Assembly: GCA_038884455.1 (NCBI GenBank)
Contig: JAWABU010000004.1
Location: forward strand, 906-64,905
Length of the DNA: 64,000 nt
From: Thermoplasmatota archaeon
Lineage (GTDB): Archaea; Thermoplasmatota; E2; DHVEG-1
Direction: 5' to 3'
Shown here in pieces: positions 57,353 through 64,000 of the stretch. Made by a program: the position numbers and the translations under genes. The stretch's first letter is position 1, and each line of letters starts with the position of its first letter. The notes beneath the pieces are model-generated. The model saw only the letters and a program-made list of their open reading frames with translations. It did no database searches and had not been told where the DNA came from.

Positions 57353-57832
57353 TTATCGGCGCTGGAATGTATTTTTCTTCAATATCAAGTTATCAATATC
57401 TTTATGAATATCTGGCGTCTGATCAATAATTTTTGGCATGGGAAGTTGCCGTGTCTGTTCGAGTGTCGAAAAGCGATAAATTTGTCCATGGAGGCGGGTC
57501 ATCTCACGATCAATTTGCTCTTGGAGTCTGAGATTTTGCTCTCTGAGTTCTTTGATCTCTTCTTTTAAATGAAGGATATAATCTTGGATAATAGGGTTTA
57601 CGTCTTCCTCCTGAACCATTTGGTTTACTTGCAGGTTTCCCTCTAACGACTGCTGGTTTACCCTGGTTGAGTGTACCTCTTGGTTTCCCACAGGGCATTT
57701 TATATCTTCAAGGTAATGCCAGAGTGCCTCTCTGAGAATTTCACTGTTGCTTTTTCCTTGTTTGTGAAGCTGGTCTATGATTCCTTCCTCTTGATGGGTT
57801 AGTTTCATCGCAATTGTTCTACCCATATGCAT
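57353..57832 (-). CDS. ribbon-helix-helix (CopG-like) protein with coiled-coil C-terminus
   Basis: RHH motif MKLTHQEEGIIDQLHKQGKSNSEILREALWHYLE and a heptad-rich C-terminal region. Confidence 0.6.
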   Translation of the reverse strand: MHMGRTIAMKLTHQEEGIIDQLHKQGKSNSEILREALWHYLEDIKCPVGNQEVHSTRVNQQSLEGNLQVNQMVQEEDVNPIIQDYILHLKEEIKELREQNLRLQEQIDREMTRLHGQIYRFSTLEQTRQLPMPKIIDQTPDIHKDIDNLILKKNTFQRR

Positions 57833-57964: not shown

Positions 57965-58807
57965 CTACATACGATACATCTTGAATACCCACCCCTTTTT
58001 TGGTTTCTTTTGCTGATCTTTTGGTCCGGGGATGTTTGGTATGGTTGTTTCAACATGGGATTCAAGAGAGTGGTGTATCTGATGGTCGTGGATGCTTGGT
58101 TTTCGTGTTTCTTCAAGATAAAACATAATACGATCGAATTTATCATCGAGTCGTTTAATGGAATCTTTGACTTGTGTATAATACTCGGTCTGGAATGTAG
58201 TGTAGGTATCTCTGAGATATTGCTCTTGGGCAGTGTATCTCTTTTTCCACTCTTGAAGTTCTTCTTCGAGTTGTTTGGTGCGAAGTGATAATTCATTGAT
58301 ATATTGATTGAGATAGTCATGCGGTACGTTTATTGGTTGTTGGCCTGTGTGGTATACCGGTTTCTCCTCCTGTTGGTATACCACTTTCTCCTGATTTTGG
58401 TATACCGGTATACCAGGTTGGTATACCGTTTTCTCCTGATTTTGGTATACCGCTGTATCATTTTGGTATACCTTTTTCTCATTTTTCTCCTGTTGTTTTT
58501 GGTATACCGGTTGGTATACCGTTTTCTCCTGATTTTGGTATACCGGTATACCAGGTTGGTATACCGCTTCACCGATTTTCTCCTGTTGTTTTTGGTATAC
58601 CGGTTGGTATACCGAGCTAAAATAATTTATGAGTGCTTCGCGCATAAGTGTAGTCGGTGAAATGCCTTGTTTTAAAATGCGATTTACGATTTCTTCTTCT
58701 TCAGCAGTAAGTTTTAATGAGAGAACTTTTTTCATATTCTTTTTCCCTCGCGATTTTGGAAAGTACATGCAGAGAATTGACTCTGCAATCATCTGGTTTT
58801 TCGTCAA
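57965..58807 (-). CDS. ribbon-helix-helix protein with VYQ tandem-repeat region and coiled-coil C-terminus
   Basis: RHH motif LSLKLTAEEEEIVNRILKQGISPTTLMREALINYF. Repeats VYQP/VYQN/VYQK about 14x. Likely start is the Met at 58735. Confidence 0.6.
   Translation of the reverse strand: MTKNQMIAESILCMYFPKSRGKKNMKKVLSLKLTAEEEEIVNRILKQGISPTTLMREALINYFSSVYQPVYQKQQEKIGEAVYQPGIPVYQNQEKTVYQPVYQKQQEKNEKKVYQNDTAVYQNQEKTVYQPGIPVYQNQEKVVYQQEEKPVYHTGQQPINVPHDYLNQYINELSLRTKQLEEELQEWKKRYTAQEQYLRDTYTTFQTEYYTQVKDSIKRLDDKFDRIMFYLEETRKPSIHDHQIHHSLESHVETTIPNIPGPKDQQKKPKKGWVFKMYRM
58330..58620. repeat. array of about 14-15 copies of the palindromic octamer GGTATACC (higher-order ~135-bp duplication) inside the RHH gene
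   Basis: Direct reading: GGTATACC occurs every 12-30 bp. It encodes the VYQ repeats on the minus strand. Confidence 0.85.
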
Positions 58808-58925: not shown

Positions 58926-59138
58926 TTACTGCTGAACCATAAATATGAAGAGAGTTCCTAGGATCATAAGGAGAACGAAACATAGGGTAAATGGAATCTT
59001 GATAGTATATGTACAAAATGATCCAATAATTCCTGTAGTTATACCTCCAATCCAAAATAATGCTGCTGTTGGTTGTTGAGGATATATGATAACTGCTAAA
59101 AAAATGATGATGCCGATCCCAAACAGCACCTCATACAT
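58926..59138 (-). CDS. small membrane protein (2 TM)
   Basis: Two hydrophobic helices. Confidence 0.45.
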   Translation of the reverse strand: MYEVLFGIGIIIFLAVIIYPQQPTAALFWIGGITTGIIGSFCTYTIKIPFTLCFVLLMILGTLFIFMVQQ

Positions 59139-59437
59139 ATGTTGTCATCATCCTTGGTTGATATCTCCTCATGGTATATCTTTCTTATTTATTGTATTTA
59201 TACATTTTGAAGCAAAATGTCACAAAGATATGTAAAATTTTTAAAGGAAAAATTGTACGTTTTTAGTTCGTCTTTACTTTGGTACTCGAGCTGAGGAGAT
59301 TGTTTATGAAGAGCAACGAGGTTCCCTGTTTCACCAACGCAGAAGTGCCGGGGGAAGTCGTATTCCAATATATTTATATATGAAATCAGTATATACGCAT
59401 ATAAACACGTTTTAATACGTGTTGATAGGTGAAAGAT

Positions 59438-59680
59438 ATGAAAAAAGCGCAAATCCTAGGTTTGATACTTCTTATAGCGGGGATACTCCTTGTAGCACTC
59501 TCTTCAATGTTTGAAAGTTTACAAAAACTGGATCTTTTGACGATACCCGTACTTATGCTCTTCGCAGGCACAATCATCATTATCGGAGTTATTGTACTAC
59601 TTTTATCAATTATTTTTGAACAAACACGTGATATGAACAAAAGAAAACAAGAGATCAAAAAGGAGGATTTTGAACCATGA
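59438..59680 (+). CDS. small membrane protein (2 TM), first gene of YbjQ operon
   Basis: GGTGA RBS 6 nt upstream of the ATG. Two TM helices. The stop overlaps the next gene's start (ATGA). Confidence 0.55.
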   Translation: MKKAQILGLILLIAGILLVALSSMFESLQKLDLLTIPVLMLFAGTIIIIGVIVLLLSIIFEQTRDMNKRKQEIKKEDFEP

Positions 59681-59979
59681 TACTCTCAAACACTGATTTT
59701 ATCCCTGGGAAAGAAGTAGCTGAAGTTCTTGGCTTAGTCCGGGGAAACACCGTCCAGGCAAAAGTATTCTATAAAGACATTGCAGCTGGTTTTAGAAACT
59801 TTGTCGGCGGCGAAATCAAAGAATACACCGAGATGCTCTCAGAGGCACGTGAAATTGCATTAAAACGCATGGAGCAGAAAGCAGAAAAACTTGGTGCTGA
59901 TGCCATCATCAATGTTCGTTTTATGACCTCTGCAATCATGGCAAGTGCTGCAGAAATTTTGCCTATGGAACCGCAGTGA
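59677..59979 (+). CDS. YbjQ/UPF0145 family protein
   Basis: Matches along its full length (ILSNTDFIPGKEV..VLGLVRGN.V......KDI.AG.RN.VGGE...Y.....AR..A..RM...A..LGADAII..R). Confidence 0.8.
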   Translation: MILSNTDFIPGKEVAEVLGLVRGNTVQAKVFYKDIAAGFRNFVGGEIKEYTEMLSEAREIALKRMEQKAEKLGADAIINVRFMTSAIMASAAEILPMEPQ

Positions 59980-59997
59980 AACTCAAATAGGATACGT

Positions 59998-60189
59998 ATG
60001 GGGATCACGAATCTTATCATTTTCATCTCAGGACTTCTAGTGACTCTCATCGGTCTTGGTGCGTTTATCAATCCAAATCTTGCTCGTTGGATCAATGCAC
60101 CAGGAGCTCCAATCATCAAAGCAATCATTGCACTGATCATTGGTATCATCATGATTGCACTGAGCGTCTTCATCCAATTCCCAGGATAA
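59998..60189 (+). CDS. small membrane protein (2 TM)
   Basis: Two hydrophobic helices. Confidence 0.5.
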   Translation: MGITNLIIFISGLLVTLIGLGAFINPNLARWINAPGAPIIKAIIALIIGIIMIALSVFIQFPG

Positions 60190-60204
60190 AGGAGTGCAAA
60201 AAAC

Positions 60205-60420
60205 ATGCCGAAAGTTACCATAACATTAAGCGATGACATTTGGACTTGGTGGAAAAAAAATCCATGGATTAATCTTTCACAGCTTGCAGAACGAGAACTT
60301 CACAGAATTAGAATGCTTGAAGAACGCGTGCTTGGGAATTGTCCAAGCTGTGGAAATACAAAGCTGCGTTTTGATGGAAAAACATATTGTTGCTCAAAGT
60401 GCGGATATGTCTATGAATAG
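60205..60420 (+). CDS. zinc-ribbon protein
   Basis: CPSCG...(17)...CSKCGY C4 ribbon. Confidence 0.55.
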   Translation: MPKVTITLSDDIWTWWKKNPWINLSQLAERELHRIRMLEERVLGNCPSCGNTKLRFDGKTYCCSKCGYVYE

Positions 60421-60610
60421 AAAGTCACAACGATTCTGTCCTGAATGCGGATCAACTAATATCGACTGGGTGTTACCACAGCTCTGGTCAAAATGGCAAT
60501 GTAAAGATTGTGGGTATCAGGGTGCACTCATCGTTGAAGATGGAAAGATCGGTGATGAAATCAGAAGAGAATATCTTAAAAAGAACAAATTCAATACTAC
60601 TGGAAGGTAA
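60407..60610 (+). CDS. zinc-ribbon protein
   Basis: CPECGS...CKDCGYQG ribbon. The ATG at 60407 overlaps the previous stop by 14 nt. The six-frame ORF 60233..60610 was trimmed to this internal Met. Confidence 0.5.
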   Translation: MSMNRKSQRFCPECGSTNIDWVLPQLWSKWQCKDCGYQGALIVEDGKIGDEIRREYLKKNKFNTTGR

Positions 60611-60930
60611 TGCGTATGCTTGTTACAACAACTGATTCGATTCCTGGTAGAGACGTCAAAGAGGTTCTTGGGGTTGTATTTGGATCATGTGTTCAAACTA
60701 AACATATCGGGAAAGACATCAGAGCAGGACTGCGAAATGTTATTGGTGGGGAGGCTAAGAGTTATACTGAACTTCTTGAGGAGGCACGGCGAACCGCGAT
60801 GCAACGGATGATTGATGATGCAAAAAAACTTGGTGCTGATGCAATTATTGGTATGCGATACGCAACGGCGCAGACTATGGTTGGCGCTGCAGAACTTATC
60901 GCATTTGGTACCGCTGTAAAAACATATTAA
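60610..60930 (+). CDS. YbjQ/UPF0145 family protein (second copy)
   Basis: Same family pattern as 59677..59979. The ATG overlaps the upstream TAA (TAATG). Confidence 0.8.
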   Translation: MRMLVTTTDSIPGRDVKEVLGVVFGSCVQTKHIGKDIRAGLRNVIGGEAKSYTELLEEARRTAMQRMIDDAKKLGADAIIGMRYATAQTMVGAAELIAFGTAVKTY

Positions 60931-60971
60931 AACAATAATGAATGTTGACCACAAGAAAGAGAGGATGGCTT

Positions 60972-61688
60972 ATGTCTGTTATTGAGGTAAAAAATCTGAA
61001 AAAAAATTACGGACGCATTACAGCAGTTAGAGGAGTTTCTTTTTCAGTGAATCAAGGAGAGATTTTTGGTTTGATCGGACCGAATGGTGCCGGGAAAACA
61101 ACGATTCTTCGAATTATTGCAACACTTCTAAAAATTAGTGAAGGATCTGTCTCGATCATGGGTTTTGATTGCACTCGAGAGGCAGATGAGATCCGAAAAA
61201 TCATTAGTTATCTTCCTGAGGATGCTGGCGCGTATAAGAACCTCTCAGGAATTCAGTATCTCCGCTTCATTAGTAACTTTTTTGATACGCAAAATAAACA
61301 AGCCATGATCCAGCGAGGAGTTGAAATCGCAGATCTTGGTGATCGGATCAATGATCGAGTTGATACGTATAGTAAAGGAATGATGCGTAGACTTCTTGTT
61401 GGTCGAGCGTTGATGATTAATCCAAAACTAGCGATTCTTGATGAACCTACCTCAGGTCTTGATGTGATCAATGCACAACAGATCAGAAAAATCATTCAAA
61501 CCACTGCAAAAAATGGTACAACCATTCTTCTCTCAAGTCATAATATGCTCGAAGTTGAATTTCTCTGTGATCGTATCGCGTTGATAACCGATGGTCGGAT
61601 TGTTGAGGAAGGAACGCCAAAATCGTTACTGCAGAAATATGCTGCGAACAACATTGAGGATGTGTTTGTTAAGGTGGTGAAACCATGA
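60972..61688 (+). CDS. ABC transporter ATP-binding protein
   Basis: Walker A motif GPNGAGKTT, a signature/Walker B region (ILDEPTSGLD) and an H-loop. Confidence 0.85.
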   Translation: MSVIEVKNLKKNYGRITAVRGVSFSVNQGEIFGLIGPNGAGKTTILRIIATLLKISEGSVSIMGFDCTREADEIRKIISYLPEDAGAYKNLSGIQYLRFISNFFDTQNKQAMIQRGVEIADLGDRINDRVDTYSKGMMRRLLVGRALMINPKLAILDEPTSGLDVINAQQIRKIIQTTAKNGTTILLSSHNMLEVEFLCDRIALITDGRIVEEGTPKSLLQKYAANNIEDVFVKVVKP

Positions 61689-62974
61689 CTGCTTTGGGAA
61701 ATATTTTGAAAAAGGAGATCAGAGAGCTTCTCACGCCTGCAACATTTCTTCCTATCATCATCGTCGCGTTCTTGTTTGGAACGATGGGGAGTTCACTCCA
61801 GGGTATCCAGGAGGAAGCAAAGCAACCACCGATTATTGGTGTCATCACTGCTGATTCTGGCGTGTTTGCACAGACAGCAACAGCGATTTTTTCCCAATAT
61901 GCAAATGTTACATTTACTGGGTCTTCCCTTGCTGAGAAAGAAATCGGTTTTACGGTCCTTAAAGAAAATCATGGTGCTGCTCTAATTTATATCCCTGAAA
62001 ATTTCACGAGCAATATTCTCTTAGGACAACCAGGGTATGTTGAGATTTTCTGGGTGATGCAGGGTACGGGCATCATGGATGCCATTCCATCAGCAGCTGT
62101 TGGTTTTCTCATCCAAAAGATCGATATGAATATTTCTCAAACACTCATTCAACAGAACAGTTCGATGAATGCTTCAGTTGTTCTTGCGCCAACACAGCGT
62201 TTTGAAACCACATATTTTAAAGGGAAAGAATTCACCGGTATTTCTCCGGATACGATCATTAGTTTACTTTCCTCACAATCAATGTTGATCCCGATTGTTA
62301 TTATGATGATTATTATCATGGCAGGGGGTATTGTTATTACCTCGATGGCGTTAGAAAAAGAAAACAAAACCCTTGAAACATTACTTACGTTGCCGGTTAA
62401 ACGTACGAGTATTGTTACGGGAAAACTGATCGCAAGTGCAGTCATCGGTCTTCTCTTGTCAATTATTTATATGATTGGGATGAGTTATTATTTTCAAGGT
62501 TTTTCAATGTCTCAAGAGGGTAATCTTGCGATGTTCGGATTGACGCTTTCAATACCTGATTTTCTCTTGATTGGTGTATCGATGTTTGTGGCATTAATTG
62601 CTGGACTTGCGTTATGCATGTTGCTTGGCACCTTTGCAAAAAACTACAAGAGTGCACAGACGTTGACATTCCCGATAACCATGTTTGCTATGATTCCAAT
62701 GTTTATTGCGATGTTTGCTGATTTTGACACACTTCCGTTACTGCTGAAGGTTTTTGTTTTTGCGATACCTTTTTCTCATCCTATGCTTGCACCACGAGCA
62801 CTGCTTTTTGATGACTATCTATTGGTTGTTGGTGGGATCGTCTATGTTCTCATTTTTGCTCTTATTACGATTGGCATTGTTGTCTGGATTTTTAAAACTG
62901 ATCGACTTTTAACTGGAAGTTTACGGAAAAAAAAGACCAAGGGTTTTATGTTTGTGAACCGGCGTAGCTTCTAA
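61685..62974 (+). CDS. ABC-2 family transporter permease
   Basis: N-terminal TM, a large extracytoplasmic loop and 5 C-terminal TM helices. ATGA overlap with the ATPase gene. Confidence 0.75.
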   Translation: MTALGNILKKEIRELLTPATFLPIIIVAFLFGTMGSSLQGIQEEAKQPPIIGVITADSGVFAQTATAIFSQYANVTFTGSSLAEKEIGFTVLKENHGAALIYIPENFTSNILLGQPGYVEIFWVMQGTGIMDAIPSAAVGFLIQKIDMNISQTLIQQNSSMNASVVLAPTQRFETTYFKGKEFTGISPDTIISLLSSQSMLIPIVIMMIIIMAGGIVITSMALEKENKTLETLLTLPVKRTSIVTGKLIASAVIGLLLSIIYMIGMSYYFQGFSMSQEGNLAMFGLTLSIPDFLLIGVSMFVALIAGLALCMLLGTFAKNYKSAQTLTFPITMFAMIPMFIAMFADFDTLPLLLKVFVFAIPFSHPMLAPRALLFDDYLLVVGGIVYVLIFALITIGIVVWIFKTDRLLTGSLRKKKTKGFMFVNRRSF

Positions 62975-62984
62975 TTTTTTTCTC

Positions 62985-64000
62985 TTATTTTTTTACCCTA
63001 AGATACATAAAGAATAGATGTCCTTCAGCTTTCTTTGATACGGTTTGTACGCCGTCAACCGTGATTGTTATCGTAATGGTAACCGGGCCGATACCACGGA
63101 TTGAGGTCATTGCGATGTGCTGTGTTGCTCCGGCTTTAAGACAGGAGATACTTCCACTCTTTTTCATATGAATTGAATCAAAGAGACCGCCGGTGACCGT
63201 AATGCTCCATTCAATATTAAATGCGTCATCACCGAGGTTTTTCAGCTCAGCTGAGACTTTTCCTTGTTTCAACAATCCACCCCATCCACCGGTGATCTTC
63301 CCAATGACGACCTGTGGATCTATGATACGGATCGTGAGTGGTTCAGACCAAGTGCTCTTTTTGTGGAGGATATCTACAGCGTAGATTCTGATACTGTAGG
63401 TTCCTACGGTATCCCATGAATGATTGACGATGACTTGCTCTCCTGAATTCAGTGGTCCAACCCAAGTCCATGTATCATCTCCCCAATCCCAATAATACAA
63501 TATGTTGTGTCCTTCAGGATCAGAGGAAACTGTAGAGAACGTATAGTTAACATCTGGTAATCCAACGGTTGGTCCATTTGGCTGATCTGGCTGCTCAGGT
63601 GGTAGATTTGCTCCAAAACAGAAAATCATACCTTCGCTGTTCATAACGTAGAGATCACCGTCGGCGAGAGCTGGTGCGCAAGAAAAACCAAACGTGAATT
63701 CTTTTGACCATTGCTGTTCTCCTGTAGATGCATTGAGGCAGTACACATTTCCTTTGAGATCAACGAAATAGACAAAACCATTTCCGGAGAGTACTGGTGG
63801 AGCAACCACTCCATCTTGCGTTTGATAACTCCAAACCAAATCATAGGTGGCGCTACTTGGATCATCGATGCCTTCATCAATTCCATCGGATGGGTCTGCA
63901 TCAAAACAATACATCTCTCCAGTGATAGGAGGAACATATCCATTGTATGCTCTGTAGGAACCGATGTAGATTCGGTCATTGAAGACCGCAGGGGAAGATA
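62985..64000 (-). CDS. secreted PQQ-like beta-propeller plus PKD-like domain protein (5' end beyond window)
   Basis: PQQ-type repeats (..DGDLYVMNSEGMIFCF.., ..GNVYCLNASTGEQQW..) and a PKD-like segment (YYWDWGDDTWTWVGP...HSWDTVGTYSIRIYAVD). The reading frame stays open to the window edge. Confidence 0.6.
   Translation of the reverse strand, partial: SSPAVFNDRIYIGSYRAYNGYVPPITGEMYCFDADPSDGIDEGIDDPSSATYDLVWSYQTQDGVVAPPVLSGNGFVYFVDLKGNVYCLNASTGEQQWSKEFTFGFSCAPALADGDLYVMNSEGMIFCFGANLPPEQPDQPNGPTVGLPDVNYTFSTVSSDPEGHNILYYWDWGDDTWTWVGPLNSGEQVIVNHSWDTVGTYSIRIYAVDILHKKSTWSEPLTIRIIDPQVVIGKITGGWGGLLKQGKVSAELKNLGDDAFNIEWSITVTGGLFDSIHMKKSGSISCLKAGATQHIAMTSIRGIGPVTITITITVDGVQTVSKKAEGHLFFMYLRVKK

Follow-up and report, generated by a model that had tools for sequence, protein, structure and literature searches.

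A conserved YbjQ/zinc-ribbon gene cluster with a predicted 10-bp-phased operator upstream of an ABC-2 exporter in Thermoplasmatota

The sequence analysed here, referred to as the window, is a stretch of 64,000 nucleotides (nt) from a Thermoplasmatota archaeon (GTDB lineage Archaea; Thermoplasmatota; E2; DHVEG-1; NCBI GenBank assembly GCA_038884455.1, contig JAWABU010000004.1, positions 906 to 64,905 of the forward strand). At positions 59404-62974 it carries a cluster of eight genes, which encode two small membrane proteins, two YbjQ (UPF0145) proteins, two zinc-ribbon proteins, and the ATPase and permease of an ABC-2 exporter. According to the reading favoured here, with a probability of about 0.5, the cluster is a self-regulated operon of three modules, namely a regulatory core, a membrane module, and an output module. 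This reading is based on the conservation and modularity of the cluster, a conserved operator-like array ahead of its first gene, covariation between this array and a residue in the N-terminal strand of one zinc-ribbon protein (RHH-ZnR), and the coupling of YbjQ to transmembrane (TM) segments, including fusions. The features are listed below in window coordinates (aa, amino acids; ORF, open reading frame); other loci are designated by L numbers.

59373..59380, plus strand: TATA-like box tttatata, ~15-35 nt upstream of the operator boxes, predicted from the sequence
59395..59420, no strand assigned: operator-like array with box 1 (ACGC, 59395-59398), box 2 (ACGT, 59407-59410), and box 3 (ACGT, 59417-59420)
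59438..59680, plus strand: TM80, 80 aa, two TM helices, cytoplasmic tail charged (…IKKEDFEP); stop codon overlapping the start of YbjQ#1 (ATGA)
59677..59990, plus strand: YbjQ#1 (YbjQ1 type, UPF0145), Pfam YbjQ_1 E=8e-34; the ORF in the window stops at 59979
59998..60189, plus strand: TM63, 63 aa, two TM helices and a FINPN loop
60205..60420, plus strand: RHH-ZnR, 71 aa, N-terminal strand-helix-helix and C-terminal C4 zinc ribbon, proposed autorepressor
60407..60610, plus strand: ZnR2, 65-67 aa, C4 zinc ribbon and C-terminal helix
60616..60930 (ORF from 60610), plus strand: YbjQ#2 (YbjQ2 type), 104 aa from the ATG at 60616, Pfam YbjQ_1 E=6e-38
60972..61688, plus strand: ABC transporter ATPase (DrrA/NatA-like), Pfam ABC_tran 5e-28, 98.9 bits (cutoff 25)
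61685..62974, plus strand: ABC-2 permease, 429 aa, large extracytoplasmic loop, ABC2_membrane_3 1e-31, 110.7 bits (cutoff 31.6)
62975..62994, plus strand: two T7 runs, the likely end of the transcription unit, a role suggested here by sequence and position

All eight plus-strand ORFs are present as described in the first-pass annotation, which was made from the letters of the window, and so are the tight junctions it reported: ATGA at 59677-59680, a 14-nt overlap of the RHH-ZnR and ZnR2 genes, TAATG at 60608-60612, and ATGA at 61685-61688. The overlap shrinks to 8 nt if ZnR2 starts at its second ATG (60413), as in the public annotation; the other intergenic gaps are 18, 15, and 41 nt. Every internal gene is preceded by a Shine-Dalgarno (SD) motif, and orthologs together with these motifs favour starts at 60616 for YbjQ#2 and 60972 for the ATPase. 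Oligo-T is an archaeal transcription termination signal, and the only T runs of at least 7 between 59300 and 63050 are the two T7 runs straight after the permease stop, which fits a single 3.6-kb transcription unit. The cluster is almost certainly a conserved, co-transcribed unit. As for the protein families, the first-pass assignments (two YbjQ proteins, an ABC ATPase, and an ABC-2 permease) are upheld by Pfam far above threshold. Neither Pfam nor NCBIfam has a match above threshold for the ribbon proteins or for the pair of small membrane proteins; Pfam ribbon families match both ribbon proteins below threshold only, and TM63 matches no family in either database.

Conservation was assessed by a search of one genome per species with the 71-aa RHH-ZnR, followed by tblastn of the window proteins. 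The order TM80-YbjQ1-TM63-(slot)-RHHZnR-(ZnR2)-YbjQ2-ATPase-permease is kept almost everywhere in 43 species-level Thermoplasmatota genomes, as well as in 24 metagenome loci, and the flanks around it often differ. Ortholog identities reach 70-86% for RHH-ZnR (43 genomes), 69-84% and 72-89% for YbjQ1 and YbjQ2 (tblastn, genome loci), 65-74% for ZnR2, 41-74% for TM63 (tblastn, most loci), 66-76% for the ATPase, and 54-66% for the permease. Compared with the last value, the 70-89% typical of the small proteins indicates that these are more constrained than the permease. Thus, on the two points that the first-pass annotation had left to comparison with other genomes, the small ORFs keep 70-89% identity across the 43 species, and YbjQ, ribbon, and ABC genes are found together repeatedly. 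Its view of a single eight-gene system holds for a conserved, tightly packed unit, which is nevertheless divisible, as the ABC pair and the YbjQ clusters each occur apart.

The strongest signal in the cluster is the partnership of YbjQ2 and RHH-ZnR, which form its invariant core. Their genes are adjacent in 42 of the 43 genome loci and paired in every divergent version examined, with YbjQ2 always downstream. Divergent RHH-ZnR members (55-67% identical) keep this pairing in other settings: on its own as just two genes (L061/62), beside a 4-TM protein bearing the same ribbon type at its C-terminus (L063), or with DUF805 and DUF4234 membrane proteins (L057-60).

A further feature is the array of boxes (consensus atACGTatTaAtACGTaTTaA.ACGTaT). 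Wherever the sequence ahead of a cluster was available, the first gene is preceded by two to four (AT)ACGT(AT) cores with a spacing of exactly 10 bp, downstream of a TATA-like box (tttaaata at the same relative position in orthologous loci) and just before the SD motif and start codon. Within the window, boxes 2 and 3 are perfect, and box 1 is degenerate and shifted by 2 nt. A three-box regular expression (ACGT-N6-ACGT-N6-ACGT, one degenerate box allowed) has 26 matches in 733 kb, all at cluster heads, and the two-box pattern has 65, ~59 of them at cluster heads. The boxes stay at the operon head when another gene leads (L025, L039, L045, L078, and L051). Among metagenome loci, those with the cluster and upstream DNA have the boxes, and the ABC-only loci have none. 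The extra leading genes themselves number one or two and encode membrane proteins (L025:4358-5732, L039:196-1486, L045:282-938, and L078, with ACGT boxes ahead). One is a multi-TM protein of 214 aa; the other, a TM protein of 208-236 aa, has an extracellular domain that resembles a carbohydrate-binding module by eye.

The 7-bp-arm inverted repeat at 59404-59423, noted in the first pass as a hairpin at the promoter, is indeed present and spans boxes 2 and 3 plus flanking bases. Alone it would not stand out (83 repeats with such arms occur in the window, vs 32-57 in shuffles), and it is conservation, not the repeat, that makes it meaningful. Boxes 2 and 3 can pair as a hairpin (−8.3 kcal/mol); since each box is palindromic and any two can pair, this potential is best seen as a by-product, and the strict helical phasing of 10 bp points to a protein on one face of the DNA. 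An RNA hairpin was rejected as the primary explanation on account of the box palindromes and their exact phasing, to which palindromic DNA boxes are the better fit. The boxes are thus predicted, with high confidence, to be a protein-binding operator.

The putative binder of the boxes is RHH-ZnR, an assignment that is moderately probable and receives independent support at the sequence level from covariation between the box core and residue 5 of the protein. Where this residue is T (K-V-T-I-T), as in the main group and in the divergent, higher-GC L139, the boxes are of the ATACGTAT type with an ACGT core; S at this position (K-V-S-I-T, L063) goes with ATACGCAT boxes and an ACGC core; and N (K-V-N-I-T), found in three cluster types, goes with 10-bp-phased ACTCCT/AGGAGT repeats. 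The ACTCCT pattern has 6 matches in 1.24 Mb, all at the heads of N5 clusters. In ribbon-helix-helix (RHH) proteins such as Arc, MetJ, and CopG, the N-terminal strands pair in the dimer and alternate strand residues read bases. One parallel is MetJ, whose met boxes (AGACGTCT) are likewise tandem short palindromes with an ACGT core, read by a K-x-T-x-S strand, to be compared with K-x-T-x-T in RHH-ZnR. Unlike MetJ, however, the predicted boxes here have a period of 10 rather than 8 bp, RHH-ZnR has no S-adenosylmethionine-binding body, and no sequence homology between the two was found. Two RHH-like proteins encoded nearby (RHH159 and a VYQ-repeat protein) were also considered as operator binders and rejected, as they are absent from most cluster loci.

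As for RHH-ZnR itself, its N-terminal domain is conserved (KVTITL…WxWWKxNxWINLSQL), and the knuckles of its ribbon (C46/C49 and C63/C66) are invariant or nearly so. The AF2 model of the monomer (pLDDT 83.5) has residues 1-9 extended, followed by helices 10-17 and 24-43 and then the ribbon. This strand-helix-helix order matches that of RHH proteins and makes an RHH assignment plausible for the modelled fold. Seventeen of 47 homologs also have weak, sub-threshold matches to the RHH antitoxin CcdA. According to Foldseek, the ribbon part aligns to the ribbons of TFIIB and TFS4 at 1.2-1.3 Å.

Both YbjQ proteins are clear, full-length members of their family (YbjQ_1, PF01906), with 116.8 and 130 bits (cutoff 23) over profile positions 1-95 and 1-102 of 103. 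YbjQ/UPF0145 spans bacteria and archaea, and its pentamer crystal structures are about two decades old; the literature search found no study reporting a function. Using phmmer, YbjQ matches 1VR4/2GTC at 7e-15, and the PDB relatives 1VR4, 2GTC, and 1Y2I have five chains per entry. Relatives of solved structure are described as pentamers (PMC4092069), and by analogy the proteins encoded here are proposed to be putative homopentameric rings. The thiamin-phosphate-synthase result of one paper on "YbjQ" belongs to YjbQ/UPF0047, which makes it unfit for annotating UPF0145, and a role as a ThiE-like analog was set aside for that reason. The paper in question credits ThiE-like, thiamin-phosphate-synthase activity to "YbjQ" (PMC7084401).

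The two YbjQ types are ~55% identical to each other and 70-89% identical to their own orthologs, which indicates an old duplication with both copies maintained. Known members of the family are solitary, whereas here two anciently diverged paralogs are kept together, one tied to an RHH-like ribbon protein and the other tied or fused to membrane segments. YbjQ1-type proteins share the consensus LVrGNTiQaK…INvRFMTS…AAEILaYgTAV. YbjQ2-type proteins have the motif GvVFGsCVQtKH with an invariant Cys (Cys27) and a conserved His (His32), and this Cys/His motif is absent from YbjQ1. With 98.6% identity over 12.3 kb, the window is a strain variant of contig JAVYLX010000003.1 in GCA_038740275.1 (a metagenome-assembled genome of Candidatus Thermoplasmatota, L001). 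Relative to L001, YbjQ#1 in the window has a 1-nt deletion at ~59958, which changes the C-terminal strand AYGTAVKLK to PMEPQ. In L001 the protein is intact (104 aa), and the C-terminal strand (…AxGTAV) is also intact in all orthologs and in YbjQ#2. The deletion may be a genuine inactivating frameshift or else an error of assembly; as the sister species L002 already lacks the cluster, the lineage of the window may be shedding it.

The link between YbjQ1 and the membrane is seen in gene organization and in fusions. A TM80 ortholog with the same ATGA overlap is found in 34 of 34 loci with a readable upstream ORF (window included), and TM80 orthologs always end in …IKKEDLEP. In distant versions YbjQ is fused to TM segments, with 2 TM at the N-terminus (the second YbjQ of L057) or 4 TM at the C-terminus (L139), and these fusions can be regarded as Rosetta stones for the separate TM80 and YbjQ1 pair of the window.

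Zinc ribbons of the RHH-ZnR type (GNCPxCG…L.F.DG..Y.C..CG) were also observed at the C-termini of the membrane proteins P0263 (L063:7213-7839), P0255, P0269, and P0266 (DUF805). Two genomic contexts were seen: ribbon-ended P0263 lies in a YbjQ cluster, and L059 holds a 347-aa DUF805 protein with the length of P0266. The presence of this ribbon on membrane proteins beside YbjQ2-type genes, as well as on RHH-ZnR, is most economically explained if the ribbon is a docking element for YbjQ2, and the sequences suggest that it is a shared docking module.

In the mechanism proposed on these grounds, we infer the operator binder, the ribbon-YbjQ contact, the signal, and the substrate. RHH-ZnR, probably as cooperating dimers, would occupy the 10-bp-phased (AT)ACGT(AT) boxes on one face of the DNA, and, given the position of the boxes, after the TATA box and before the first gene, its binding is proposed to repress the whole unit. 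YbjQ#2, as a soluble pentamer with an invariant Cys, would dock on the zinc ribbon and tune repression as a ligand-sensing partner, in a role comparable to that of the metal-binding domain of NikR or of the toxin for an RHH antitoxin. That YbjQ2 acts through the ribbon is a tentative proposal, put at somewhat less than even odds. In the membrane module, TM80 (co-translated) and perhaps TM63 would anchor YbjQ#1 to give a membrane-side YbjQ assembly. ZnR2 with the ABC-2 ATPase and permease would form the output module, to which relatives add slot-encoded hydrolases, intramembrane proteases, or a second ABC-2 exporter. In response to a signal read by YbjQ, the operon as a whole would most likely adjust how a substrate associated with the membrane or envelope is exported or turned over. 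A bolder reading is a membrane-to-DNA relay with YbjQ proteins as its signalling subunits, in which a membrane-anchored ring (YbjQ1 with TM80, or TM-fused YbjQ) and the soluble YbjQ2 ring exchange a ligand or partner, and YbjQ2 on the ribbon, be it that of the RHH-like repressor or of the membrane proteins, switches the repressor at the ATACGTAT operator. Such a relay is speculative and rather unlikely; if true, it would provide the first function, that of a sensor or co-regulator, for the widespread UPF0145 family.

Several results weigh against the self-regulated operon. For the binder, Foldseek matched the ribbon part of RHH-ZnR alone, no Pfam RHH family was found for the window protein at E<=0.1, and the PDB profile search returned no RHH protein, searches with the N-terminal domain giving chance matches only. 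Alignment with hhalign to seven RHH sequences gave a probability of 60.6% over only 16 columns (the strand and first helix turn). The covariation spans only three strand classes and hence few independent events, and an unlinked factor rather than RHH-ZnR may bind the boxes. As for the unit, the rearranged loci L006-9 have no boxes ahead of ZnR2-ABC, so that the ABC pair is not always under this operator, and the pair frequently lacks the cluster (in 18 of 42 metagenome loci it stands by itself or accompanied by ZnR2 alone; also L003-5). The cluster is dispensable, being degraded in L053 and reduced in L002, the closest relative (permease 75% identical), to a decayed YbjQ1 remnant. This pseudogene (L002:8984-9301, GCA_053492495.1; 51% identity over 78 aa) lies directly before the ABC ATPase, with no TM80, ribbon genes, or boxes, and is a fossil of the cluster. 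Finally, the codons of the TM80 tail KKEDLEP (AAGGAGGAT) also serve as the YbjQ1 SD motif, and the conservation of the tail may therefore be at the nucleotide level.

The bare two-gene unit of L061/62 also suits an addiction pair of the toxin-antitoxin (TA) kind, with RHH-ZnR as antitoxin, YbjQ2 as a toxin of ~100 aa, and the boxes as an autoregulatory operator, all embedded beside a housekeeping ABC transporter. Gene order, protein sizes, and the palindromic operator fit type II architecture; as in systems with RHH antitoxins of the CcdA, ParD, or RelB type, a small RHH-like gene is followed by a ~100-aa gene, an operator lies upstream, and the downstream protein is a plausible co-regulator. 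Moreover, 17 of 47 RHH-ZnR homologs match the RHH antitoxin CcdA weakly (best E=0.014, sub-threshold), the presence of the pair is patchy, with the decay seen in L002 and L053, and a PemK/antitoxin pair lies close by in the same genome. Unlike mobile TA loci, however, the pair is very highly conserved and syntenic across species, non-mobile, set among membrane proteins and exporters, and consistently elaborated with a second, membrane-anchored YbjQ and envelope enzymes. YbjQ proteins are widespread and solitary with no toxin record, PADLOC has no matches for the small proteins, and the RHH-ZnR family is tiny and limited to one lineage (13 representatives at E<1e-10 among 1.84 billion, Thermoplasmatota-like sequences only). 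A TA pair is accordingly regarded as quite improbable. A reading as a defence system was dropped, as PADLOC gave generic ATPase matches alone.

The Cys/His motif of YbjQ2 bears on metal or chalcogen homeostasis, a reading that takes up the metal-handling idea of the first pass. In this reading, YbjQ pentamers would bind metal or Se/S species via Cys/His, RHH-ZnR and YbjQ2 would act as a split NikR-like repressor, and the ABC-2 pair would export the ion or a chelate. The invariant Cys and conserved His in FGSCVQTKH agree with it, as do a weak NCBIfam match to sel_bind_Methan and the Pfam label "putative heavy-metal-binding", although this label is a guess and YbjQ1 lacks the Cys. Regarding NikR, its N-terminal strand is RVTITLDDD, which the KVTITLDDD start of RHH-ZnR resembles, and it also combines a small N-terminal strand-helix-helix DNA-reading head with a sensing part and represses a transporter operon. 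In contrast to NikR, the putative head of RHH-ZnR is followed by a zinc ribbon, YbjQ2 as the proposed sensor is encoded by a gene of its own, and the operators differ; Pfam and PDB profile searches gave no NikR homology for RHH-ZnR. The fold and pentameric state of YbjQ are those of a Methanococcus selenium-binding protein (PMC4092069). Against metals, the gene lists and homology matches of ~140 loci, whose flanks were not systematically annotated, hold no P-type ATPase, CDF transporter, ArsR/CopY-type regulator, or metallochaperone; the variable-slot genes encode proteases and hydrolases; and ABC-2 exporters of this type are not known as metal pumps. Metal or chalcogen handling is therefore unlikely. 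The envelope/peptide flavour of the slot genes, along with known permease-CPBP fusions, favours a membrane or envelope substrate, and an envelope or peptide substrate in place of a metal is suggested with some hesitation, as a proposal that falls short of even odds by a fair way.

In the window, no gene occupies the slot in question, between TM63 and RHHZnR. In other loci it encodes a DUF3887/alpha-beta-hydrolase lipoprotein, a CPBP/Rce1-like protease, a YhfC protease, or a small ABC-2 permease together with an ABC ATPase fused to a zinc ribbon. This second ABC-2 exporter was observed at L011:845-2586, L028:2626-4379, L034:6222-7975, and L051:6233-7980; its ATPase has an N-terminal double-CxxC zinc ribbon and its permease ~220 aa, an arrangement that parallels the separate ZnR2 before the main ATPase. 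The slot CPBP or YhfC proteases echo the permease-CPBP fusions known among ABC-2 exporters.

The main ABC pair resembles NatAB, DrrAB, and CPBP-fused ABC-2 exporters in having an ordinary ATPase and a 6-TM permease with a large external loop, which matches PDB 3CNI (6e-16); the permease has 2864 relatives. Neither protein reaches the curated cutoff of a named ABC-2 subfamily (NatAB, DrrAB, or others): the best NCBIfam match of the ATPase is the drrA subfamily (226.7 bits, below the cutoff of 312), and that of the permease is the permease part of a permease/CPBP-protease fusion (ABC_perm_CPBP, 84.5 bits vs a cutoff of 435).

ZnR2, in which the knuckles C11/C14 and C32/C35 are invariant, accompanies the ABC pair as an accessory. 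Among metagenome loci with upstream DNA (n=42), the cluster lies directly upstream of the ABC genes in 24, ZnR2-ATPase-permease occurs alone in 9, and the ABC pair alone in 9. In the rearranged loci L006-9, ZnR2 is directly upstream of the ATPase and the YbjQ genes are downstream of the permease, and in 13 of the 43 genome loci tblastn did not find ZnR2 between RHHZnR and YbjQ2, 12 of these gaps being too short for it. The AF2 model of ZnR2 (pLDDT 61) was too poor for use.

Such arrangements raise the possibility that all the small proteins are exporter subunits, with YbjQ rings and ribbons docked on the ATPase or permease and the boxes bound by an unlinked factor or acting as an RNA leader hairpin. 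The ABC genes of most loci do follow the small genes directly, within a single unit; ZnR2 stays next to the ATPase gene after rearrangement, the slot ATPase carries a fused N-terminal ribbon, and boxes 2 and 3 have the hairpin potential given above. Nevertheless, RHH-ZnR/YbjQ modules occur in YbjQ clusters with no nearby ABC pair (L016, L018, L033, L044, L047, L057-63, and L139), the ABC pair is common without the small proteins, and DNA recognition is indicated both by the exact 10-bp phasing of two to four boxes and by their covariation with a residue of a protein. A role purely accessory to the ABC pair suits ZnR2, though not RHHZnR and YbjQ2, and as an account of the whole cluster it is judged improbable, less so than a TA pair.

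Compared with known systems, the components of the cluster and the logic of an autoregulated transporter operon of RHH type are familiar, whereas the module of YbjQ, ribbon, and membrane anchor is new. No description of this cluster was found in the literature, Pfam, or NCBIfam, and to our knowledge no ABC-2 system has been described with YbjQ, RHH-ribbon, and ribbon accessory genes. Under the self-regulated-operon reading, a housekeeping ABC-2 pump has been captured by a lineage-specific regulatory module, and a compact archaeal regulatory element of three phased ATACGTAT boxes is defined, as a prediction. The cluster also offers the first usable clue to the role of YbjQ and makes the function of UPF0145 experimentally approachable, as it supplies testable partners: a DNA-binding-like protein with a predicted operator and a candidate specificity residue, membrane anchors, and an exporter as output.

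Scanning the window for Rfam families and tRNAs gave no matches, and the remaining observations concern the neighbouring genes. On the minus strand, 57965-58807 and 57353-57832 encode paralogous proteins with RHH-like N-termini and coiled-coil tails; their only RHH_1 match is weak (E=0.014), and homologs lie near ABC genes in L002, L006-9, L068, L071, and L113. The larger paralog has tandem VYQ(P/N)… repeats, with DNA periods of 24, 45, and 93 bp at 58344-58614. A divergent gene (58926-59138, minus strand) shortly before the operon promoter encodes a 70-aa two-TM protein that matches no family and has a counterpart of 67% identity in L002. At the other end, outside the operon, a convergent gene (62985-64000, minus strand) for a PQQ-like beta-propeller/PKD-domain protein runs past the end of the window (647 aa in the public record), and weak relatives of this protein are encoded near the cluster in several loci.

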